From a virus (Duplodnaviria > Caudoviricetes): a DNA stretch of 64,000 nucleotides. Position 1 is the stretch's first letter. Each line of letters begins with the position of its first letter. The translations under genes were made by a program, and so were the position numbers. The stretch is taken from the IMG/VR virus record IMGVR_UViG_3300021295_000001; one strand, 5' to 3'. The notes under the pieces are model-generated. The model made no database searches and had not been told where the DNA came from. It worked only from the letters and a program-made list of their open reading frames with translations. Positions 9,767-57,506 of this stretch are shown in pieces.

Positions 9767-10677
9767 GCGAATGGACTTACGTTAAGGGCTCGATGAGGCT
9801 GTTGGGCGTCGCGTTCGAATACGCGGAGCCATGGCCCAAGGAGCCAGACAAATCCTCGGACGGCACGCCCGAGTCTGAAGCAGAGTGGGACGCGTACAGG
9901 GAGGCGGTCGCCAAGGCCAGGGCGAGCGCTTACCTCCCCTACCCGAAGGAGCAGTTCGTCCTGTCGCCCCCGAAGGCGTACGAGAACAAATACTACGACT
10001 TCGAGGAGCAGAAATGGAAGCGCAGGCCAAACGAAGTCGACGCGGGAATCGAATACGATTGCTACGTCCTGTCGTTGCCCAGGCTCAGGCCCATCATCGA
10101 GGAGGCGTTCGACGAGTTCCCCGAGGGCGAGTCATACGTCATCAGGCACTCGCTCAGCCAAAACGTGTCCGACTACAGCGGTGGAACCAACTCCGTGTGC
10201 AACGAGGATATAATGCTCAGGTATTACAGGGAGGCGGTCAAGGAAAGGCACTCTATTGGCGAGGACCCAGACCGCGTGGCCCGCGAGGACGCCGACTGCA
10301 TATTCTCATGGGGCTCGGTGAAGGCCGAGCCGTCCTTCTACACCAGCGTCGAGGCCGTGTTGGTCGGAATCTACGACGACGTGAGGGACTGCGACGCCGA
10401 CGACATGCTGAAGGGCCTGCAGGGGTTCATCAGGAAAATCGAGGGCGAGGGAATCATCATCCAAGGCGGTTACCTCGAGTGGCAGGACTCCGACAGGGAG
10501 CACATCCACGCGTGGAGGCACGACTGGGGCGTCGAGGACGGGGCGCATCTGTTCATGACGCTGGACGCCAAGACGAACGCAATCGTCCACGTCACGAAAT
10601 GGGTGAAGAACAACGACAGCATGAGGCACCCGAAATACGACGTGGTCGAGGAGGACCACGGCACCGTCGCACAATAG
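9763..10677 (+). CDS. hypothetical protein
   Basis: ATGA coupling (MSEWTYV...). Confidence 0.75.
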   Translation: MSEWTYVKGSMRLLGVAFEYAEPWPKEPDKSSDGTPESEAEWDAYREAVAKARASAYLPYPKEQFVLSPPKAYENKYYDFEEQKWKRRPNEVDAGIEYDCYVLSLPRLRPIIEEAFDEFPEGESYVIRHSLSQNVSDYSGGTNSVCNEDIMLRYYREAVKERHSIGEDPDRVAREDADCIFSWGSVKAEPSFYTSVEAVLVGIYDDVRDCDADDMLKGLQGFIRKIEGEGIIIQGGYLEWQDSDREHIHAWRHDWGVEDGAHLFMTLDAKTNAIVHVTKWVKNNDSMRHPKYDVVEEDHGTVAQ

Positions 10678-11597: not shown

Positions 11598-12494
11598 ATG
11601 GCGATTAGGGAAGTTAACAGGATTGATTATTTCGATGACGGCGAAGCGGAAACATCCGTGAAGGACAGACTGTTCCGACTGCTCGCGTTCCTTTTGGAGG
11701 ACGCATCCGACCTGCCGTCCCAAGAGACGATGCAGATTAAGGTGGTTCCGAACAGGGACCTGGCGAATTCCGTGAGCGTCGAGTGGAAGGTGACGAACGG
11801 CGAGTATTCCACCGCCACGTTGGACTGGGTTTCCGACGGCGAGGTGGTCATGAAGGAAATCACGATGCCAGACGGTTCCACGCAGTACGCTTTAAGGGAC
11901 GAGGACGAGAACGAGGTCATCGACGAATGGCTCAAGACGCACAAAGGCTGGGTCAAGGGCGACTACGGCTCTTGGCACAACGTGGCCGACGACGCGCACG
12001 ATTTGCTCTGGTACAGAGCGGAATCCATCGCGTCCAACATAGCCATCGCGAAAGAGGACAAGGGGTTCACCCTCCCCAACGGGGGTGATTGCGGTCCCGA
12101 GGAAACGGCGCGGGCGGTCCTGACGCTCTTCGGGAAGGACGACAACGACTACCTGAGGCGCGCTGGGGTAATCGCCCTCGGGCCGTCGTTGGCCAAGTCA
12201 TTCGGGTTCGACGCATCCGAAGGGCGCGAGGTTAAGTTCCTCGGTTGGCACCAAGTCCACGCCAAGAAGACGCAATGGCAGGAGGCGTGGGACCACGAGG
12301 TGGCCGTGTTCGGCGTCAAGGCGTTCGGGGATTGGGACATCGTCCTGTTCACGGATAGCATGTATCAGATTCTGAATTCGACGGTCTCAGCGCCGACGGT
12401 CCCCGAGACGGAATCGGTCGGAGAAACGGCGAAGCGCAAAAGGGGCCGTCCCAAAAAGGCGGACGGCGCAAAGGAAAACGGAGGTAAGGAATAA
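11598..12494 (+). CDS. hypothetical protein, paralog of 10705..11505, with C-terminal AT-hook-like KRGRPKK
   Basis: GGAGGT RBS; shared motifs. Confidence 0.75.
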   Translation: MAIREVNRIDYFDDGEAETSVKDRLFRLLAFLLEDASDLPSQETMQIKVVPNRDLANSVSVEWKVTNGEYSTATLDWVSDGEVVMKEITMPDGSTQYALRDEDENEVIDEWLKTHKGWVKGDYGSWHNVADDAHDLLWYRAESIASNIAIAKEDKGFTLPNGGDCGPEETARAVLTLFGKDDNDYLRRAGVIALGPSLAKSFGFDASEGREVKFLGWHQVHAKKTQWQEAWDHEVAVFGVKAFGDWDIVLFTDSMYQILNSTVSAPTVPETESVGETAKRKRGRPKKADGAKENGGKE

Positions 12495-13036
12495 TGGGAC
12501 GAGAGGTAATCGTCGGTAGGATTTCCCGTTGCAAGGACGGGGAGCACGAATACGAGTTCAAGGCAAACGAGGACAGGTTCATCTGCGGTAGGACCGAGTT
12601 CACCAACGCGCTGTGGGGCCTGTTCCACAGACATGGCGACGATGTCGACGTCATCTACTTCAGGAACGACAAAGGGCTGTTCCCCGAGATAAACGACGAC
12701 CGAGACGGAATCGAGAAGGCGTACTGCGCCGAGACGGAATGCGTCCTGGACGTCGCTGGTTGCGACTTCGATAGGTTCGCGGAATTGGTCAAGGAATACG
12801 ACGACGAGGATTCCCGCGAGGTGGCTAGGTGCGAATCCATGATGCAAGACGCCAGAATCGCCAGGCAGAAGGCCGTGTCGCTCAAGGCGTTCAATGAATT
12901 CTCCAACCTAATCGACGAGTTGTCCGACCACATCAGGAACTATTCGTTCGAAGCGGAATGCTTGGCGAAATACGTGCACGCCGAATCCGAGGAACTCGGA
13001 ACGGACGAATGCGTCGCCATCGAATTCTCGGACTGA
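12494..13036 (+). CDS. hypothetical protein
   Basis: TAATG coupling. Confidence 0.75.
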   Translation: MGREVIVGRISRCKDGEHEYEFKANEDRFICGRTEFTNALWGLFHRHGDDVDVIYFRNDKGLFPEINDDRDGIEKAYCAETECVLDVAGCDFDRFAELVKEYDDEDSREVARCESMMQDARIARQKAVSLKAFNEFSNLIDELSDHIRNYSFEAECLAKYVHAESEELGTDECVAIEFSD

Positions 13037-13049
13037 ACGGGAGAGGGAT

Positions 13050-13679
13050 ATGGCGAACAAAAGGGGAGTGTACGTCGACTACGGCGACCTGTGTCGGATG
13101 CTAATCGAGTCATGCCGATACGGCTACGCAAGGAACAACCACCTGATGCCTTGGGGCGCGTTCCAGCAGTGCATGAAGTACGTGGGGAAGTTGGAGAAGG
13201 CGTCCCTTGAGTTGGCGTCCCACACGGTAAGGCAACTGTGCGAGGAATGCATATCGGCCCTGTGCTCGAATTTCCCGAACGGATACGACGTGGATTCGTT
13301 CGGCATGTGCAACAGGTCGGAATACGTCGAGTTCATCGAGTGGTGCCTTTCGTGGCTGGCCGAACGCGGGCAAGGCAAACCGTACAACGTGGATTGGTAC
13401 CGAGAGAACATGGCCATCGACGACGAGAGGGTATACGTGGCGTACGACGCCGACACTGGCGAGCAGTTGGTGGACGAGGGACACGCCATGGGGCTCAACG
13501 AGGCCAAGGACTGGGTGTTCGCCCCGTTCAATGGCCGTTGCGAAAGCGTCACGTTCAACAAGGTGGCCAAGAAGAACGATGACGGAACGTTGGACATATT
13601 CTACCGAAACTTCAGCGAGCCTTGGCGCGGGAATGTGAGGTTGCACAGATTCGCGACGAGGGAGCGAAAGCGGGATTGA
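13050..13679 (+). CDS. hypothetical protein
   Basis: RBS; followed by terminator 13667-13693. Confidence 0.75.
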   Translation: MANKRGVYVDYGDLCRMLIESCRYGYARNNHLMPWGAFQQCMKYVGKLEKASLELASHTVRQLCEECISALCSNFPNGYDVDSFGMCNRSEYVEFIEWCLSWLAERGQGKPYNVDWYRENMAIDDERVYVAYDADTGEQLVDEGHAMGLNEAKDWVFAPFNGRCESVTFNKVAKKNDDGTLDIFYRNFSEPWRGNVRLHRFATRERKRD

Positions 13680-13745
13680 CGTCCCGCTTTTTCGTTAAAC
13701 TACAACCGTCGCGTTTTGGGCCGAATGTAGTTTATGAATAGGGTG

Positions 13746-13774
13746 TTGAAACGGTCCGCGCTCGGTGGTATAAT
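13746..13774 (+). promoter_or_regulatory. sigma70/sigmaA promoter
   Basis: TTGAAA-N17-TATAAT with extended TG. Confidence 0.8.
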
Positions 13775-13798
13775 ATCCCCGAAGAGAGGCAACCGACC

Positions 13799-15046
13799 AT
13801 GAAATACAACATCCCCGTGTCCAAAATCGAGAAACTCGAGAAACTCATCGCCAAGTACAACAAAAAGGGCGCTGGAATTTCCTATGAGCGCGGTGAGGAG
13901 GTCATCGAGGACGGGACCCTCGTCTACCGTGGCGTCGACGGCATGGGCAGGCCCTTCGAGAGCCGTTCCCCCATCAAGGTCCGTTGCGTGGAGGTCGTCG
14001 TGGACGGCTCCTACGTCATCAACGGTTGGGAGTTCGTCGGCGTCTTGGAATACACTGGCTCCTCCGTCGTCGTCAGGTTGGCGGACACCAAGTTCTCTGG
14101 GAAACTCCCCGAGCGCTTCCGCGACCCCAATGACATGGTCTGCGAGCACTGCCACACCATCCGCAACAGGAAGGACCTCTACGTCATCCACAACGTCGAG
14201 ACCGACGAATACAGGAAGGTCGGCAGGCAGTGCCTCCTCGAATACACCCGCGGGATGGACGCCGACGTCTGCGCCAGCGTCATGGAGGCCCTCGGCAAGT
14301 TGGTCGAGGTGTCCGACCCCTGCGTCGGATGGGACGAGTTCATGGGCAACGGATACGACCGCTCTGGCTACGGAATGCCCCGTCGCGAGTTCACCGAAAT
14401 CGCCTACGCGATGGTCAAGAGGTTCGGGTACGTCCGCAAGGACACCGTCAACGACATCCTATCCTACGTCTACAAAAACGGCATGACCAAGGCCGAGTGG
14501 GACAAGAGGTTCGGCTCGCTCGAGATGCCCAGCGAGGCGGAGATGGCCGAAATCGACGCCTACGTCGCCGAGGAGGCCAAGAAGGACGAGGCCCTCAGGG
14601 CCAACGGCTTCGGCTCTGGCCTCACCGAATACATGAGGAACGTCGTGGCCCTTTGGTCCGCGGAATACCTCGAGACCAGGGACTTCGCCATCGTGGCGTC
14701 CTTCTGCAACGTCTTCCTCGGCAAGGTCGCCAAGGCCAAGGCGCACGCCGAGAAGGCCTCCAGCGAATGGGTCGGCAAGGTCGGCGACAAGGTCGAGTTC
14801 CCCGTCAGGTCCGCCAGGGTCCTCTACACCAAGGACTCCTATTCCTACTACGGACCCTGCTCCTACGTGTGGGAACTCATCGACCCCAACGGCAACGTGG
14901 CCATCTGGTCCACCACCCGTTCCGACCTCGACTCCGAGGGCCTCGGCAAATACAAACTCATCGGCACCGTGAAGGGCCAGAGCGAGTACAAGGGCGTCAA
15001 GCAGACCGTCCTCACGAGGTGCAAAGTGGAGGCGGTCGCTTGCTAA
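13799..15046 (+). CDS. conserved phage protein with zinc-ribbon-like CxxC and C-terminal OB-fold-like domain
   Basis: CEHC...VGRQC; VGKVGDK...GTVK..EYKGVKQTVLTR; strong codon bias. Confidence 0.7.
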   Translation: MKYNIPVSKIEKLEKLIAKYNKKGAGISYERGEEVIEDGTLVYRGVDGMGRPFESRSPIKVRCVEVVVDGSYVINGWEFVGVLEYTGSSVVVRLADTKFSGKLPERFRDPNDMVCEHCHTIRNRKDLYVIHNVETDEYRKVGRQCLLEYTRGMDADVCASVMEALGKLVEVSDPCVGWDEFMGNGYDRSGYGMPRREFTEIAYAMVKRFGYVRKDTVNDILSYVYKNGMTKAEWDKRFGSLEMPSEAEMAEIDAYVAEEAKKDEALRANGFGSGLTEYMRNVVALWSAEYLETRDFAIVASFCNVFLGKVAKAKAHAEKASSEWVGKVGDKVEFPVRSARVLYTKDSYSYYGPCSYVWELIDPNGNVAIWSTTRSDLDSEGLGKYKLIGTVKGQSEYKGVKQTVLTRCKVEAVAC

Positions 15047-15049
15047 ATT
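15041..15049 (+). promoter_or_regulatory. putative late promoter TGCTAAATT
   Basis: recurrent motif at the start of the late block. Confidence 0.7.
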
Positions 15050-15099
15050 ACACGATTCTAGTTATGCCTTATTCGCTTGAAAGGTAGGAGGAGAACATA

Positions 15100-18000
15100 A
15101 TGAAGATTAAAATCGTGAAACCCACGGGCGAGGTAGAGAGCCACGACGCTGGGATAGAGGCTTCTTTCGAGCCGTTCGAGAACGAGAGGGAAAGCAACGA
15201 GCCCGAGGCCGTCGAGAAGCAAATCGAGGCCACCGAGAAGGAAATCGAGAGGCGCCTCGAGAAGGCCAAGGAGAACTCCGAGGCCACCAAGGGCGAGGAC
15301 CACGTCGGCGATGAAGGAAAATCATTAGAAGAAAGTTTTAATAGCGGTGCAACTGTGTATGAAGTGGCAAAAGACGGTCTGCCTGAAGTCGGTAGAGAAT
15401 TTATAGCCTATTTATCAGGTCACAGGGACTACGAAATATGCAAAAGATTAGAAAAATCTAAGATGGAAACACGACCAGGTGCTGAAGGCTATATTAGTCC
15501 AGACGGTGAATTCTATAATAGCGCACATGGTTGGATTTACCCTATAACCTATGATAGTTACGTTTACATTGATGAGATAGGCCTTAAGTCGGGCAACGTC
15601 TCTAATGCGGAGACAACCGAATTTGAAGCCATGAAGCAAAAATCACTAGACACATTCATCGAGGTATTTGGCGATGAGTTGGGCAAGAGGTTGCATAACG
15701 CATTCTCAACAAAGAGGTCTAATGGTAAATTTACAGTTAGGTTACCATTCGATAGCGGGTTTAATGGTTACGACGAAAAAGCAGACATCAATTATTACAG
15801 TGTTTGTGGCAACTCTGGTAAAGAATATGATAAATTCGTTAACCAACTCGTAAATAACGGTTTCTCAAGAAATGAGGCTTTGAAGGTATTAGACATAATT
15901 TCTAAATATGAGTGGCGGAGCGAGTTTGCAAACGATGCCTTCAGAGAAAAGAGAAGTGATATCGAGAAATACATCAAAGGCACAAACGAATCTCCCGAAG
16001 AAAATAACGAAGATGTCACGGACTCAAAAGTAGCGGACGATAAAACCAAGACTGTCGGCGAGGAAATCACCGAGTCCTTCAAGAACAGGAAGGACCTTTC
16101 CTCTCGCATACAGTCGCTCAAGGCCGAGGGCATCGCCTTCAAGGTCAACAGGAGCGCCACCGAGGGCATGAGGTACGACCTCACCTACGCGAAGCCTATC
16201 GTCGAAGGGGAAGGCGACGCCATCGAGGTCACCGACGAGGTGAACGTCGAGGAACCCATCGAACCCGTCGAGGCCAAGCACGTCGGCGCCGATGAAATCG
16301 AATCCGCCGTCAGGGAAATCGCGTCCAAATACAACGGCGAGGGCTCCGAGGCCCAAATCGGCGTGGACGAATTCTCCAAGGAAGGCGAGGGCGACAAGCA
16401 CATCAAACTCACGGTCCTGGGCGGGCTTAACGGCTTCGGCGAATGGGACAGGTACCTCACCGCCCTCGGTTCGTTCCTTTCCGAAATCAAGGAAGAGACG
16501 GGATGGAACCCCCGCGTCGAGGAGTTGGCGAGCGACATCGCCGACGACACCTTCTCCGTCACCCTGCATCTCTACGACGAGGAACTGGATGGCTCAATCG
16601 AGGAGTCCATCGGCAAACTCAAGGAGTGGTACGAGGGCAGGAAGGCAGAGGCCGAGATTGGGGAAAGCGTCGAAGAAGGCGCGGAAGGCAAGCGCGTCGA
16701 AGGCAAGGAATACGTCATATTCGACGCATCCGAAGAAGGCAAAGCGCCGATTCTCGACATCCGTAGCACACGCGTCGAGGCGGAGAGCAGAGCCAACGAA
16801 CTCAAAAAGACTGGCGAATACGACAGCGTGTCGTTCGACGAAGCACCCAAGGGACGCTTCCACAAGGGAGACGATTTCTGGGGACCGTTCGAAGGAGACG
16901 ATTGGCATCTCGCGGAAGAGAAGCGGGAACTCAAAGAAGGCGAAAAGCACGAAGAAGGCAATGACAATCTGTTCGGTTACGTGAACGGCGACCTCGCCGA
17001 CTTCAAGGCCGAGGAACTCATCGACAAGGTCAAGGAGAGGAAGCAGTCGCTTCACACGGTCAGGTACATCAAGGACACCGACGACGTGAAGACGGTCGCA
17101 TACATCTTCTGCTCACCGATGGGCTTCGGCGAGGAACCCGCGGTGTTCGTGGACGTCGTCGAAGACACATGGACACGCAACCCTGGCGACGCAGACGACA
17201 TCAACAGTTACTATGGCACCAACAAGCAGGAACGCATAAAACTCGATTGCGCGGGTTCATGCGGTGAAGGCGAAGAGGGCTTCGCGAAAGCCATCGAGGT
17301 GCTCAACAAATACAGAGACGAAAGACTTAAAAAGAAAGAAGACATTGAGGAGAAAACCGAAATGAAGGAAGAGAAGAAAGAAATCGAGGAAATCGCTGAT
17401 TTCCACTTCGAGTGGAGGGACGACGAGGACGAGCATCTTGTGGTCGTCGCGACCTTCCCTGATGGCCACGAGGAGGACGTCGGTTCATATGAATCAGAAA
17501 CCGAGAAGCCCGAGTTCCTCAAGGCTCAGGAAAACGGCGACGAACTAGCGTTCGAGAACTATGACTACGAAGACTGGTACGACGATGCACTCGACAAACT
17601 CCACAGCATTGGGCTTTACCTCACTGGCGAATTGGAATCGAAGCACGTCACCAAGTGGAAAAAACCCGTGAAGGAAGAGAAGAAAATCGAAGAGGCTTGG
17701 AAGAAGGTCGTGAGCAACCACGGCCTCCGCGACGCCATCGACGCCGAGGACTACGACGGCATCAGGAAGGCGGCCATCGCCATCCTCAAGGACGTCGAGG
17801 AATTCCTTGGCGACAACACTGAGACCATGGACCTAATCGACCAGTTCGAGAGCATCGAGGAGGACGAGGAGGATTTCGACTACGCGTTGGACGAACTCTA
17901 CGACCTCTGCGACAACGTCGGCGTGTTCATCAGACTCGACGCGGAAGAGGCGCTCAAGGAAGGCGAAGGCAAAGAATGCCACGAAGGCGAGTGCAAAGGA

Positions 18001-18945
18001 AAGGAATGCGCCGAATCCAAGTGCGACGAATCCAAGTGCAACGAGGGATGGTTCCGCGGTTGCGAGGGCGTCGAGTTCATCTGGCATGGCACCCAATCCG
18101 ACCCCGAACTCGAATACAAGGGCCAGAGGTTCAACTATTGGGAAATCGAGGACGCCCTTTGGGACATGTTCAAGGACGACGGTGGCGACACCAAGGACGA
18201 AGAGGCCTTCAACAAGTTCGTCCAGGAATACTGCAAAGGCTATCTCGACGACGTCATCGCCAGCCAAGAGGAATCCCTGAAGGAAGGCGAGTGCCCCGAC
18301 GAGAAGGCCATCGAGGTCGCCAAGTACAATTACGGCTTGGACGACGACGAGGCCAAGGAATTCGTCTCCACCCTGTCTGACGAGGGCAAGTGCGAACTCA
18401 TCAAGGGCTGGGAGGCCGAGGCCAAGAAGTCCTTCCACGAGGAAGCCGAAGGCGAGTTCCCCATCCTCAGGGGCACCATGGACTTCATGGAACTCAAGGC
18501 GAAACTCTCCGACGATGAACTCAAGTACATGGAAAGCGAACTGAAGGACTACCTCACGAGCGACCCCGAGGACTACGATGAGCGCCATGGCGTTGAGGCA
18601 AAAGGCTACCCCGACGTCGTCGTTTGGTACGAAGGCGGTTACGACACCGATGACATAATCGAACTCGTCCACGAAGCGTACGCCCCGAGCGAAAGGAACG
18701 TCGAGGAGGACCTCAAGATAATCGGCGACATCTCCGACTACGAGCCGTGGTCTGGCGCCGTCGACCTCTGGAACGAGATTCAGGACAAGGGCCTCGTCGA
18801 CCAACTCGACATGCTCTTGGACGAGGTGTACCCCGAGGGAATCACCATGACCCAACTCAACGACATCCTCTGGTTCGAGCAGGACTGGGTCCGCGAGATG
18901 CTCGGCATCGAAGAGGAACCCGAAGGGGAAGAAGAGGAGGAATAA
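15100..18945 (+). CDS. very acidic modular 1281-aa protein, probable internal head (ejected) polyprotein
   Basis: AGGAGG RBS; E/D-rich; domains separated by L/I/V-x-E linkers. Confidence 0.7.
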   Translation: MKIKIVKPTGEVESHDAGIEASFEPFENERESNEPEAVEKQIEATEKEIERRLEKAKENSEATKGEDHVGDEGKSLEESFNSGATVYEVAKDGLPEVGREFIAYLSGHRDYEICKRLEKSKMETRPGAEGYISPDGEFYNSAHGWIYPITYDSYVYIDEIGLKSGNVSNAETTEFEAMKQKSLDTFIEVFGDELGKRLHNAFSTKRSNGKFTVRLPFDSGFNGYDEKADINYYSVCGNSGKEYDKFVNQLVNNGFSRNEALKVLDIISKYEWRSEFANDAFREKRSDIEKYIKGTNESPEENNEDVTDSKVADDKTKTVGEEITESFKNRKDLSSRIQSLKAEGIAFKVNRSATEGMRYDLTYAKPIVEGEGDAIEVTDEVNVEEPIEPVEAKHVGADEIESAVREIASKYNGEGSEAQIGVDEFSKEGEGDKHIKLTVLGGLNGFGEWDRYLTALGSFLSEIKEETGWNPRVEELASDIADDTFSVTLHLYDEELDGSIEESIGKLKEWYEGRKAEAEIGESVEEGAEGKRVEGKEYVIFDASEEGKAPILDIRSTRVEAESRANELKKTGEYDSVSFDEAPKGRFHKGDDFWGPFEGDDWHLAEEKRELKEGEKHEEGNDNLFGYVNGDLADFKAEELIDKVKERKQSLHTVRYIKDTDDVKTVAYIFCSPMGFGEEPAVFVDVVEDTWTRNPGDADDINSYYGTNKQERIKLDCAGSCGEGEEGFAKAIEVLNKYRDERLKKKEDIEEKTEMKEEKKEIEEIADFHFEWRDDEDEHLVVVATFPDGHEEDVGSYESETEKPEFLKAQENGDELAFENYDYEDWYDDALDKLHSIGLYLTGELESKHVTKWKKPVKEEKKIEEAWKKVVSNHGLRDAIDAEDYDGIRKAAIAILKDVEEFLGDNTETMDLIDQFESIEEDEEDFDYALDELYDLCDNVGVFIRLDAEEALKEGEGKECHEGECKGKECAESKCDESKCNEGWFRGCEGVEFIWHGTQSDPELEYKGQRFNYWEIEDALWDMFKDDGGDTKDEEAFNKFVQEYCKGYLDDVIASQEESLKEGECPDEKAIEVAKYNYGLDDDEAKEFVSTLSDEGKCELIKGWEAEAKKSFHEEAEGEFPILRGTMDFMELKAKLSDDELKYMESELKDYLTSDPEDYDERHGVEAKGYPDVVVWYEGGYDTDDIIELVHEAYAPSERNVEEDLKIIGDISDYEPWSGAVDLWNEIQDKGLVDQLDMLLDEVYPEGITMTQLNDILWFEQDWVREMLGIEEEPEGEEEEE

Positions 18946-53377: not shown

Positions 53378-53549
53378 TTCGACGGGGCCGAAAGACCCCG
53401 TTTTCGTTTCGCTGTATAATATGATTGCGGCTTAAAGCGCACGGTTTCTATTCGTTTTCAAAATTCGAAAAACGCATCGTGCGTGCGCACATACACGCGA
53501 TGTATTCGTCGTTTGCTAAATTCAGAAGAAACGGTTGGAAGGTTTTTCG

Positions 53550-56500
53550 ATGTCCGAAAGCGCAAAGTACTATGATTCTAATGGCAGGCGCCTGACGGAT
53601 GGGCAGGCCAAGTTTTTCTGGGATTCTGCCGTGAGGGACGGCCAAGGAAGGCTGTTGGTGTGCTATCATGGTTCCAACGAATCGTTTTCTGAGTTTGACC
53701 CGTCAAAAGCGTCAGGCGGTTTCTTCGGAAAGGGATTCTATTTCTCGAAAGAAGAGGAATATGCATCTGATTACGGAACATCGGTAGGCGCGTATTACCT
53801 GAACATAGAGAACCCATTCTATTATGATGAGTCGACCATGGAAGACGTCAGGAAAATCCTTGATTTGGAAATCAAAAAGGGAAAAATCGACGGTTACGAC
53901 GAAGAGGAGATGCCACGATTAGAACAAGAATGGTATGACAAAGGGTTGGACCTCATAGACGACGTCTTGGCGGAATTGGCTGGTGGTTACACGGGTGACA
54001 CGTTTTCGGAAGACATCATGCAACTTGGATATGATGGGATACTCGTCGACTACGGAAGGGAGATAATCGTGTTCAGCCCGAACCAGATTAAGCGCGTGGA
54101 CAACACAAACCCGACCGATTCCGATAGATTGGATGAGAAAACAACGCAAAACGTAATCTTTTTCGGCAATCCGACCAAGCGCAATGACATGCGCGCCACC
54201 GAATCATTTGACGAGGCTTACGAGCCGATGAAGACGGGCAAGGCATACAAGGTCTTCCGCGTGAAGAACGGGAAACTATATCCTCCCATGGTGGCCAACG
54301 CTGGCGGAAGGGACACGCCGATTGGGGTGTGGCTCGACGCAGAGGAAGGCGAGTTCGCTGGCCTTTCCAAGACTGGCAGACCCCAAGTCAAGTCGACTGG
54401 CTCTGGCACGCTCTCATACAGGCCTGGGTGGCACCTCGGCGATTTGCCACGCGCCCCTCAGTTCGACAGGACCAACAAGGAGACTGGCGAGAAGGAATTC
54501 CCGAGCGATTTCGTTTGGGCCGAGTGCGACTACGCCATGGACGTCGACTATCAGCCAGAGGCGGACGCCCGTGGGTACGAGAGGACCAAGATGGGCGACG
54601 ACGGCAAGGTCGTGACCTACAAGAGCGACAAATACCAACATTCCCTCGCGGGACTTCCGAAACTCCCAGCCAAGGGTTATTACAGATACAGGACCAACCC
54701 GAACCCCGAAACCGTGCCATGGGTCATAACTGGCTCGATAAGGGTGAACAGGTTGCTTTCCGACGACGAGGTGAACGCCATCCTGAAGGACAACGGAGTG
54801 GCCCCGATACACAGGCAGGGCGGTGACAAGACGCTCGCCGAACTCGGCCTTTCCGAATCCCTGTCCGAGGCATCTGGCTCGGGTCTTGACGAACAGGCGT
54901 CGCGACGCACGCTGACATCGAATGATTTCCTCGGTTGGGTCGAGGCGCTGTCCGACAAAGACGACATATCATATAACTCCCCCGATTCCATCGAATACTC
55001 GGACGTGTTGTTGCTGAGCCCCGAAGGGGACATGATTGACTGCGGGGAATACGACACCCACGAGTCTTTCGTGGACGCCGTGATGGAGACGAATGAGGCC
55101 AAGGAGGCCAAGGCGCGCGTCGTTTGGGACGGGAGAATAACCGATTACCTTTTGGAGAAACTCGGCTACATCACGCTTAACAGTGGCCAAGGATACGGCG
55201 ACGACAGGTTGAAGATAGTCATATGCAGAAAGCCGAGCGCTCAGCAAATCGACATCCTCAAGGAGTGGCTTGGAAACCATTTCGCGGACAACGGTCCCAC
55301 GTTGCATGTTTATACGCCAAACGACCATAAGGAATTCGACCCAACGTATTTCGACAAGGAAGACGTGACGAAAGGCATAATCAAGGCGTTTTCTTCTGGT
55401 AGAGGGGTGTTCACCGAGGCCACTGGCTCGCACCTGAAGGGCGAGTACGACTACGGCGACGTGCATTCGTACCTCGAATCCGAATTCGGGTTTTCGGACG
55501 ACATCCCCGAGGTCATGCCACAACTCATAGACAAAGACGGGCGCTTCTGCTCCATGAGCCCAAAATCCAAGCCGAACGCGCCCATGTTCCATGGGGAGAT
55601 ACTCCAAGCCATGGAGGACGACGGAATCGTGGCCACTGGCGATTCCCTTTTGGACAAGGTGAACCTAACCAACACCGACCTGTTCCAACGGCTCGGGTTC
55701 ATACGTTGCAACCGCGGGAGCGAGGGATACCACTACATGGCGTTGCCAGACGCCCCCACCGCGAACCAGATGAGGGCCCTCAAGAGGTACGTGCTCGATT
55801 CCTATTCCGACAGGCGCGCCCTGATTGAGATAAGCGGTCGTGGCGAATACGTGAACTTCATGGTCAACGACGACACCTATCCGATATGCGGGCACGTGGA
55901 CGACCTCATGAGGATGTTGGTCAGATACGCCAACGGCAGGCCCCTGAGGACGAAAACGGAGGCCAGGTTGTCCGAGGAATGGCTCGACGACGAGCACGGA
56001 ATCTGGATGACCGAGAGCCAATACGAGGTCGCCAACATGATGAGGAACTCCAAACACTCCCTCAGGATACTCTGGGACAGGAACCTCAAACTGTTCTTCG
56101 TGTGCGACGCGGACCTCTACATACACAGGGACATGATTGAGCAGGCCGTGGAGGACGGGCTGTACAACGGCGTCATAAGCCGTTGGGGTATAGACTCGTA
56201 CGTCGACGACTACGGCAGGAACGTGATATACTACATCTTCGCGCCGAAGGGCCTCGAGAAGGAGACCTACGGGGCGGACGTGAACGAGGACGGCTACGAG
56301 GGTAAATACATATACCCATTCGGGACCGTGACCACGCGTAGCGACGACAGGTACAAGTCCTCACCGCTCGCCAAGGCGCTCGGGAAGTACGAGGCCCATT
56401 ACGTGCAGGACGGGTGGGTCGACGATTACACGCCGAAGGTCGTACAGGTAGAGTCGATGCTCACCGAGGTGTATCCGAACGAGGGCGAATCGAAGAAGGA

Positions 56501-57506
56501 CTTCGTGTCCCGCTTCATGTCCGTTACCAAGGACGAATACCCAGACGTAAAACAGCGATACGCCGTGGCTCTTTCCTATTGGGACAGGGCCAAACGCAAA
56601 AACGAGTCGTTGCTCACCGAGAAGAAGCGCGGTGAACTCATAAGCCAGTCCAAGAAGGGCGCGGACTATTCGAAGAACAACCAATCCAAAGGCAGGAACA
56701 GGTGGGAGCGCAGGATGCATTCCCGCGTGGCGAACAGCGTCAGGGACTACGACAGGATAGACATGAACGCGCTTTGGAAGGCCGACATACTGGAGTTCGG
56801 CGTGAAGGTGCACGGCGAGACCGACGACTACGTGGTCACGATAACGTTCGAGAAGATACTCGACAACCTGAGGCAGGAGGTCCGCTCCAACGGCAACAAG
56901 ATGGAGTTCAAATGCGTGCTCAGGGCGCTAATGAGGTCGTTCAACGACGACGACGTCTTCATCAGTTGCTCCTGTCCCGACTGGAAATACAGGTTTTCCT
57001 ACCAAAGCACGATTGGGCGCTACAACAGCGGTCTGCCAGAACTCAGGCCGAGCGACATCACCAACCCCAACAACGACAAGGGCGCTGGGTGCAAGCACTC
57101 GTTGCTCGTCCTGTCCAACACGGACTGGATGGTCAAGATAGCGTCCGTCATAAACAACTACGCGAGGTACTGCCAGAAGAACATGCAGAAGAACTACGCG
57201 GACTACATATTCCCGAAGATTTACGGGATGCCCTACAAGAAGGCCGTGCAACTGTCCCTGTTCGACGACATGGACCCCGATAAGAGCGGTCTGTTGCCGA
57301 GCGACCAGAAGGCCCTGTCCGACGTCATAGAACTCGGCATGAGGGGCAAGGACGAGAAGGGGCGCTTCGAGAAGGGCAACGACTACAGGTTCGCGAAGAC
57401 CAAGCCCGAGGTTGGGACCGACCAAGAGGACGAGAACCCGCTCGAACTCAGATTCGACAACAACAGGCGCAAGACGCTCAGGGGACCAGAGGAGGAAGAA
57501 GGATGA
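53550..57506 (+). CDS. large polyvalent protein: ART-like domain, several cargo domains and C-terminal SWIM zinc finger
   Basis: YHGS..F..FD...GKGFYFS...YLNIENP..GYDGI....EIIVFSPNQIK; CSCPDW...CKH; TGCTAAATT at 53514. Confidence 0.8.
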   Translation: MSESAKYYDSNGRRLTDGQAKFFWDSAVRDGQGRLLVCYHGSNESFSEFDPSKASGGFFGKGFYFSKEEEYASDYGTSVGAYYLNIENPFYYDESTMEDVRKILDLEIKKGKIDGYDEEEMPRLEQEWYDKGLDLIDDVLAELAGGYTGDTFSEDIMQLGYDGILVDYGREIIVFSPNQIKRVDNTNPTDSDRLDEKTTQNVIFFGNPTKRNDMRATESFDEAYEPMKTGKAYKVFRVKNGKLYPPMVANAGGRDTPIGVWLDAEEGEFAGLSKTGRPQVKSTGSGTLSYRPGWHLGDLPRAPQFDRTNKETGEKEFPSDFVWAECDYAMDVDYQPEADARGYERTKMGDDGKVVTYKSDKYQHSLAGLPKLPAKGYYRYRTNPNPETVPWVITGSIRVNRLLSDDEVNAILKDNGVAPIHRQGGDKTLAELGLSESLSEASGSGLDEQASRRTLTSNDFLGWVEALSDKDDISYNSPDSIEYSDVLLLSPEGDMIDCGEYDTHESFVDAVMETNEAKEAKARVVWDGRITDYLLEKLGYITLNSGQGYGDDRLKIVICRKPSAQQIDILKEWLGNHFADNGPTLHVYTPNDHKEFDPTYFDKEDVTKGIIKAFSSGRGVFTEATGSHLKGEYDYGDVHSYLESEFGFSDDIPEVMPQLIDKDGRFCSMSPKSKPNAPMFHGEILQAMEDDGIVATGDSLLDKVNLTNTDLFQRLGFIRCNRGSEGYHYMALPDAPTANQMRALKRYVLDSYSDRRALIEISGRGEYVNFMVNDDTYPICGHVDDLMRMLVRYANGRPLRTKTEARLSEEWLDDEHGIWMTESQYEVANMMRNSKHSLRILWDRNLKLFFVCDADLYIHRDMIEQAVEDGLYNGVISRWGIDSYVDDYGRNVIYYIFAPKGLEKETYGADVNEDGYEGKYIYPFGTVTTRSDDRYKSSPLAKALGKYEAHYVQDGWVDDYTPKVVQVESMLTEVYPNEGESKKDFVSRFMSVTKDEYPDVKQRYAVALSYWDRAKRKNESLLTEKKRGELISQSKKGADYSKNNQSKGRNRWERRMHSRVANSVRDYDRIDMNALWKADILEFGVKVHGETDDYVVTITFEKILDNLRQEVRSNGNKMEFKCVLRALMRSFNDDDVFISCSCPDWKYRFSYQSTIGRYNSGLPELRPSDITNPNNDKGAGCKHSLLVLSNTDWMVKIASVINNYARYCQKNMQKNYADYIFPKIYGMPYKKAVQLSLFDDMDPDKSGLLPSDQKALSDVIELGMRGKDEKGRFEKGNDYRFAKTKPEVGTDQEDENPLELRFDNNRRKTLRGPEEEEG

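Follow-up and report, generated by a model that had tools for sequence, protein, structure and literature searches.

A modular acidic protein of a phage with a T4-type head as a candidate polyvalent capsid-cargo polyprotein

Introduction

In phage T4, the prohead protease gp21 cuts after the glutamate of L/I-x-E motifs, and the proteins of the head core are cut many times (PMC9026906). It also cleaves the capsid-targeting peptides off those internal proteins that are injected, one of which, IPI, acts against restriction (PMC9026906). In phages SPN3US and phiKZ, the head protease removes propeptides (PMC10052503). A second relevant group, the polyvalent proteins of phages and conjugative elements, is predicted to be packaged, and ArdA domains occur within them (Iyer, Burroughs, Anand, de Souza and Aravind, 2017; PMC5512222). 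Here we describe P0001, a protein of 1281 amino acids (aa) encoded by an open reading frame (ORF) in a stretch of 64,000 nucleotides (the window) from an uncultured gut virus of the Caudoviricetes (IMG/VR virus record IMGVR_UViG_3300021295_000001). It is best explained as a polyvalent capsid-cargo polyprotein with a leader and about 11 modules that would be cut by the S77 protease of the phage and injected, an explanation in which our confidence is evenly balanced.

P0001 resembles the polyvalent proteins in its large size, its many unrelated domains with solo versions, and its mosaic architectures. Polyvalent proteins are predicted to travel with the DNA and to serve in the first stages of conflict with the host cell (PMC5512222), and P0001 fits the polyvalent concept. 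Further links are provided by relatives that share its modules and carry LPD11, LPD26 and NUDIX domains, and by a protein with an ART-PolyVal domain encoded by the same phage. Unlike the polyvalent proteins, P0001 has no catalogued hallmark, enzyme or internal peptidase domain and contains small, uncharacterised acidic modules only. Its processing is proposed to involve the capsid S77 protease acting at regular linker sites and not an embedded metallopeptidase. With IPI, IPII, IPIII and Alt of T4 (PMC9026906), P0001 has in common a T4-type head, an S77 protease and a leader ending in L-x-E. The T4 proteins are cargo injected with the DNA, as is proposed for the P0001 modules, and IPI is directed against restriction. 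Each of them is a single cargo behind a 10-residue targeting peptide, whereas P0001 has a leader of about 78 residues, about 11 modules and further candidate sites. Many of the ejection and inner-body proteins of phiKZ and SPN3US are cut after Glu at a short motif, and their long propeptides are cut several times by gp21-like proteases (PMC10052503; PMC5694885), much as is proposed for P0001. These cuts strip N-terminal propeptides off one mature protein, whereas multiple modules would be released from the single P0001 chain. Finally, Ocr (T7 gp0.3) and ArdA are small and strongly acidic like the P0001 modules, but no module shows sequence similarity to them, and the five C-terminal modules (M7–M11) show no similarity in fold.

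Modular architecture of P0001

As claimed in the original prediction, which was made from the letters of the window alone, P0001 is encoded by a real ORF that is the first gene past a recurrent motif, TGCTAAATT, and it has a strong ribosome-binding site (Table 1). The predicted richness in acidic residues is also borne out: P0001 contains 16.9% E and 9.4% D, has a net charge of -181 and a pI of 4.36, and is the most acidic among the long ORFs of the window. Module limits were set by the coverage and end-points of homologs found in an exhaustive HMMER search with residues 1–1197 as the query, which returned 390 matches at E <= 1e-3. Homolog coverage and the confidence profile of AlphaFold2 (AF2) models divide the protein into an N-terminal leader (M0) and about 11 modules (M1–M11). 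The only PHROGs match in P0001, to phrog_5149, lies within the last 70 residues.

AF2 modelling covered residues 860–1281 and M8, because a whole-protein MAFFT alignment misplaced the shuffled modules. In the model of residues 860–1281, confident domains with a predicted local distance difference test score (pLDDT) of 80–98 are separated by segments scoring below 50, and the predicted template modelling score (pTM) is 0.45. This region is therefore modelled as beads on a string, and the single folded scaffold that would have spoken against the original prediction was not seen. The model of M8 consists of three strands and two helices.

Relatives of 757–1239 aa carry differing subsets of the modules, in differing positions and orders. 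Homologs of M4, for example, sit at varied positions in the other multi-module proteins P0006, P0007, P0010 and P0057, and in P0010 the module has E-S-L-x-E on both flanks. The leader is kept at the N-terminus of P0002–P0005, P0030 and P0033 despite their differing cargo. M1 has no counterpart in the colinear relatives P0002–P0005, in which M2 directly follows the leader, and its GC content at third codon positions (GC3) is 0.41, compared with 0.68–0.92 in every other module of P0001. AT-rich codons start already within the G-K-S-L-E-E linker preceding M1, and the M1 cassette therefore came with its own upstream joint. The three L-K-E-G sites of P0001 differ at silent positions and give no evidence for a fixed DNA junction. 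A DNA search against phage genomes returned no match, a locus search of IMG/VR returned no relative, and ten relatives that carry M1 showed no head genes when scanned against PHROGs.

Table 1. Positions of the P0001 gene, its modules and its upstream signals in the window (a slash marks the candidate cut)
Feature	Residues	Position	Strand	Observations
Promoter-like motif TGCTAAATT, late type		15041..15049	+	9-mer present in 8 copies in the window, all on the + strand; 0.24 expected
Ribosome-binding site, AGG/GGAGG-rich, strong		15082..15093	+	Read from sequence; ends 6 nt before ATG
Whole gene, acidic modular protein P0001	1–1281	15100..18945	+	ORF call
M0, N-terminal leader, end S-L-E-E/S	1–78	15100..15333	+	Kept in P0002–P0005, P0030, P0033
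M1, recently acquired cassette	79–325	15334..16074	+	Low GC3; absent from P0002–P0005
M2, small conserved module	326–369	16075..16206	+	Directly after leader in relatives
M3	370–502	16207..16605	+	Few homologs, e.g. P0151 residues 371–459
M4, end L-K-E/G	503–613	16606..16938	+	About 26 homologs
M5	614–757	16939..17370	+	About 20 homologs
M6, end I-E-E/A	758–865	17371..17694	+	Solo homolog P0073
M7, helical bundle, end L-K-E/G	866–954	17695..17961	+	AF2 pLDDT 64–92, five helices; homologs
Cys-containing repeat linker, disordered	955–982	17962..18045	+	pLDDT < 50; 15-nt tandem unit
M8, 'DPEL-YKG' domain, end S-L-K-E/G	983–1062	18046..18285	+	>90 homologs; pLDDT 84–98
M9, three helices	1063–1114	18286..18441	+	pLDDT 82–96; 11–16 homologs
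M10, low-confidence helical, end V-E-E/D	1115–1203	18442..18708	+	pLDDT 48–76; kept in P0002, P0004, P0005
M11, terminal, acidic tail	1204–1281	18709..18942	+	phrog_5149, E = 4.6e-17; pLDDT 93–97

Stand-alone homologs of the modules

Separate homologs of individual segments were found within contigs or complete phage genomes for M1, M6, M8 and M11, and these solo genes sit in early or host-takeover-type gene runs. The two segments that had been singled out in advance as resembling stand-alone phage proteins, the terminal module (M11) and the 'DPEL.YKG' module (M8), are both among them. M11 matches solo proteins of 73–80 aa in Listeria phages LP-037 and LP-125, where they lie among small genes near the genome end, and it also matches Lactococcus and Enterococcus phage records. 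In metagenomic solo versions of M11 (76–92 aa), the first Met aligns within 1–2 residues of the V-E-E/D site of P0001.

The M8 family has more than 90 cluster representatives, many of them solo proteins of 68–110 aa, and no Pfam entry. One solo copy lies in the early rightward operon of a temperate phage (L009), which also contains helix-turn-helix (HTH) genes, between a CI-like repressor gene and ERF/SSB genes. Another belongs to a prophage-like series of small genes next to an integrase gene, and a third lies in the SPO1-like Bacillus phage P59, within its 13-kb terminal repeat. The terminal-repeat region of SPO1 is a host-takeover module.

M1 has about 19 homologs. The gene for its solo form, P0046 (238 aa), and the end of an N6/N4 DNA methyltransferase gene overlap, and a solo LPD28 gene follows; such a neighbourhood (L010 3106–5057) is typical of the polyvalent and anti-restriction domain repertoire. 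The solo M6 homolog P0073 (107 aa) is located in a run of small ORFs. An apparent solo M5, P0031, was rejected as a contig-end fragment, its reading frame running on to the edge of the contig. The recorded protein of a solo M4 homolog, P0108 (L012 1261–1704), is obtained only if TGA is read as Trp, and this M4 relative therefore lives in a code-4-type genome. With many distinct domains in one large phage polypeptide, and with domains that also occur solo or in smaller architectures, P0001 almost certainly has a modular polyvalent architecture built from solo-capable modules.

Candidate cleavage sites and the head protease

The identical P0001 protein was called on 13 assembled contigs, the longest of which is 150,563 bp. 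The contig with the P0001 gene also encodes Portal_T4, Peptidase_S77 (the T4 gp21 family) and a Gp23-family major capsid protein. A 510-aa ORF at positions 10001–11533 of L005, a stretch further along this contig, combines the Peptidase_S77 domain (PF03420) with a long coiled-coil tail and lies beside the Portal_T4 and Gp23 genes. The P0001 phage therefore encodes a gp21-family prohead protease, as is expected where internal proteins of the T4 type occur. This protease/scaffold protein contains five S-L-x-E sites where 0.98 are expected, and L-T-E-A occurs twice in the N-terminal ORF of the capsid protein. The major capsid gene itself looks split (L005 11583–14194): after the 101-aa N-terminal ORF, in which both L-T-E-A sites lie, come an endonuclease-like ORF (12250–13104) and then the Gp23-family body (13217–14194), an order that suggests an intron or a homing-endonuclease insertion.

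The joints of P0001 carry hydrophobic-x-Glu motifs that fit the rule of this T4-type (S77) protease. All of the linkers listed in the original prediction are present at the kind of place it described: S-L-E-E/S at residues 75–79, I-T-E/S at 323–326, I-V-E/G at 367–370, I-E-E/S at 500–503, V-E-E/G at 524–527, L-K-E/G at 611, 952 and 1060, I-E-E/A at 863, C-N-E/G at 980, F-H-E/E at 1112 and V-E-E/D at 1201. The degenerate Cys repeat linker (residues 958–983) was confirmed as well; in the DNA, positions 18007–18044 comprise 2.5 copies of a 15-nt unit. Module junctions of both P0001 and P0002–P0005 have acidic linkers in which Cys recurs with a period of 5 (K-C-x-E type), and metal binding or disulfide formation is possible for them.

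The notion that such sites punctuate P0001 holds for their positions and fails for their total. [LIV]-x-E occurs 37 times against 36.9 expected from composition, and [LI]-x-E[SGA] nine times against 4.9 (P = 0.06); L-K-E-G alone stands out, with three copies against 0.1 expected. The homology-defined boundary zones, which take up 22% of the length of P0001, contain 18 of the 37 [LIV]-x-E sites (P = 4e-4) and nine of the 14 [LIV]-x-E-[SGAD] sites (P = 9e-4). For the control motifs, the proportions in the same zones are 24% ([LIV]-x-D), 20% ([LIV]-x-K) and 12% ([FYW]-x-E).

Among 98 relatives of at least 300 aa, S-[LI]-x-E is found 193 times, about threefold the 56–73 occurrences of permuted versions of the same letters; the 193 sites include 107 of the form E-S-[LI]-x-E and 82 of the form S-L-K-E. 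Close to module boundaries (within 8 aa), the enrichment of S-[LI]-x-E is 3.5-fold, although these boundaries are not independent, many coming from one domain family. A hydrophobic-x-E directly precedes the start of M2 in all orthologs while its residues vary (F-V-E, I-R-E, V-V-E, I-T-E), and the same is true of M11 (V-E-E, L-K-E). The S-L-E-E/S end of the leader is of the L/I-x-E type, and the relatives that keep the leader end it in hydrophobic-x-E/S in every case. In the fold model, the sites at 952–954 and 980–982 lie in the disordered linker, and those at 1059–1062 and 1201–1203 at domain edges. Judged from these sequence features, cleavage of P0001 by the S77 protease at multiple sites is a proposition as apt to prove right as wrong.

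Late-type promoter motif and packaging

The TGCTAAATT motif ends 50 nt before the start of the P0001 ORF. On L005 it is also found just 5′ of the head-protease gene, of an 818-aa gene and of further genes of the head region; the portal gene is preceded by a copy that has one mismatch. Because it precedes head-region genes, it probably acts as a late-type promoter element. The 818-aa gene (L005 5066–7522), which lies 5′ of the portal gene, encodes an intein-splicing domain (PF14890) and MJ0330_N.

Homologs of M5 in three proteins of other phages, P0040, P0059 and P0120, follow an N-terminal head-maturation-protease domain, for which phrog_530 and families related to it were the matches. The three DUF2213 hits very probably correspond to this trio, of which P0040 additionally carries NUDIX and HNH domains. 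Through these fusions, at least one module is physically tied to the prohead interior. Together with the late-type promoter motif and the conserved leader with its cut-type end, they lend indirect support to packaging. Late synthesis of modules whose solo relatives act early would make most sense if the modules were carried into the next cell. Pfam and PHROGs assign no function to the neighbours of the P0001 gene. On such sequence-derived grounds, P0001 is probably a capsid cargo.

Two other genes of the window are of interest here. A 1323-aa ORF (53535–57506) has an N-terminal ART-PolyVal domain (E = 7.7e-24) and a single S-E-S-L-S-E/A site at residue 442. The original prediction had ascribed the same design to this protein and P0001, in agreement with its being a recognised polyvalent protein. 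Directly upstream of P0001, a 415-aa gene (13799–15046) matches phrog_2319 (E = 1.4e-54), and a 380-aa gene of similar size lies directly 5′ of the ortholog P0003; the phrog_2319 gene and the P0001-type gene may form a syntenic pair.

Function of the modules

The original prediction considered the modules as candidate Ocr/ArdA-like DNA mimics or anti-CRISPR proteins, and no match bears out either identity. Pfam has no family in P0001 at E <= 0.01, and NCBIfam gives no meaningful match for P0001 or its modules. Nothing meaningful was returned by PDB sequence searches with the whole protein and with profiles of M1, M8 and M11, nor, for Ocr/ArdA membership in particular, was there a match in any of these three resources. 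For anti-CRISPR proteins, too, there was no match in Pfam, NCBIfam or PDB. A feature search of the ESM Atlas with M1 came back blank. Comparison with PDB folds spanned M7–M11: Foldseek gave E > 1 for the model of residues 860–1281 and for the M8 model, and VIA, run on the M8 model, gave Z <= 4.4. A BFVD search returned uncharacterised small viral proteins only. The Ocr/ArdA or anti-CRISPR reading, for which the arguments are acidity and gene context, is neither supported nor excluded by these searches. The net charge of P0001 is compatible with DNA mimicry, and it is plausible that at least one module is a DNA mimic or an anti-defence protein. As to restriction in the window itself, GATC, AGCT and CCGG have 0 copies each in positions 1–64000, where other 4-base palindromes have 41–478; this absence is indicative of strong selection against particular sites of restriction or modification.

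Discussion

In the proposed mechanism, P0001 consists of the leader and small, independently folding, mostly acidic modules strung on disordered linkers, and the modules correspond in kind to small proteins that are products of separate early or host-takeover genes in other phages. The polyprotein would be made late, from the late-type promoter, and the leader would probably direct it into the prohead core. There, the gp21-type (S77) head protease would probably cut after Glu at the hydrophobic-x-Glu linker sites, and the released pieces would enter the cell with the DNA and act ahead of any phage gene expression. The likeliest role of the modules would be to neutralise host defence or to serve another aspect of early host takeover. 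Modules are gained and lost as in-frame cassettes, each with its own upstream linker.

Several observations count against this proposal. About 65 kb separate the P0001 gene from the head genes downstream of it, and tail-like genes are its neighbours. Neither the leader nor any module has a paralog in the window or L005, and the leader resembles no other protein in these 85 kb of phage sequence. Total counts of [LIV]-x-E and [LI]-x-E equal the expectation from composition, and some of the sites are surely due to chance. In the fold model, the sites at 1112–1114, 1190–1192 and 918–921, which include F-H-E, V-H-E and the S-I-E-E at 918, are placed in helices or within M7, and these may be unused by the protease. 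Pfam reveals none of the hallmark polyvalent domains in P0001 (ART-PolyVal, MuF, MPTase, LPD families, ArdC-N, helicase, methylase), and none of the modules could be assigned a known family or function through Pfam, NCBIfam and PDB sequence searches.

Some of these points would suit a cargo that is packaged and passed to the next host more or less as one chain, losing at most its leader, in the manner of T4 Alt or the N4 virion RNA polymerase. In that case the linkers would be flexible acidic spacers and recombination joints, and the E-S-L-K-E-type motif a conserved linker or helix-cap element and not a protease site. Intact delivery agrees with the chance-level motif totals and with the location of some sites within predicted helices; moreover, head proteases of characterised phages mostly trim N-terminal propeptides and do not release several functional domains (PMC10052503), and some polyvalent proteins are transferred full-length (PMC5512222). 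We nevertheless consider it unlikely, because the motif is order-specific (threefold over permuted controls), identical in form to sites in the scaffold and capsid propeptide of the same phage, and concentrated at boundaries where [LIV]-x-D and [LIV]-x-K are not. Solo proteins also start where the cuts would fall.

A multi-domain protein that stays in the cytoplasm of the producing cell, where it would serve anti-defence or host takeover, with fusion serving only for co-expression, is a still less probable account. Packaging is itself a deduction, the gene lies at a distance from the head module, no paralog of its leader occurs in the window or L005, and the solo homologs are ordinary cytoplasmic early proteins, all of which would be natural for such a protein. 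It fits poorly with the promoter motif shared with head-region genes, with the fusion of M5 to head proteases in other phages and with a conserved leader that has a cut-type end, and late synthesis would be pointless for early-acting proteins unless they were carried to the next cell. Very improbable is a role in head assembly as a scaffold-like or acidic core protein, chopped by the protease into peptides that would be expelled during maturation and have no role in the next host, like T4 gp22, gp67 and gp68. The extreme acidity, the many potential Glu sites and the cutting of T4 core proteins into multiple fragments that leave acidic peptides (PMC9026906) recall such a protein, but the modules fold as domains and have solo counterparts in the early regions of temperate and SPO1-like phages, their content varies freely among close relatives, unlike that of an essential scaffold, and a coiled-coil scaffold region is already fused to the protease of this phage.

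If the cuts in the proposed polyprotein are real, P0001 would represent a polyprotein strategy for injected effectors that is undescribed for tailed phages in the literature searched, in which no paper was found on the release of many functional modules from one precursor. Such a strategy would join the polyvalent proteins with capsid targeting of the T4 type and gp21 processing. Every module set off by linkers is a candidate for a host-takeover or anti-defence protein that can stand alone, and at least two are accessible in cultivable phages, namely M11 in Listeria phages LP-037 and LP-125 and M8 in Bacillus phage P59, within its terminal repeat. By itself, M8 represents a large domain family that is uncharacterised. 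More broadly, and tentatively, T4-type head proteases may do more than trim propeptides and serve in this phage and its many relatives as polyprotein processors that produce a dozen functional proteins from each capsid-loaded precursor, an injected 'early proteome'. It might comprise the same proteins that temperate and SPO1-like phages make from early operons, and its content might be re-dealt through in-frame cassette exchange at the cleavage linkers.

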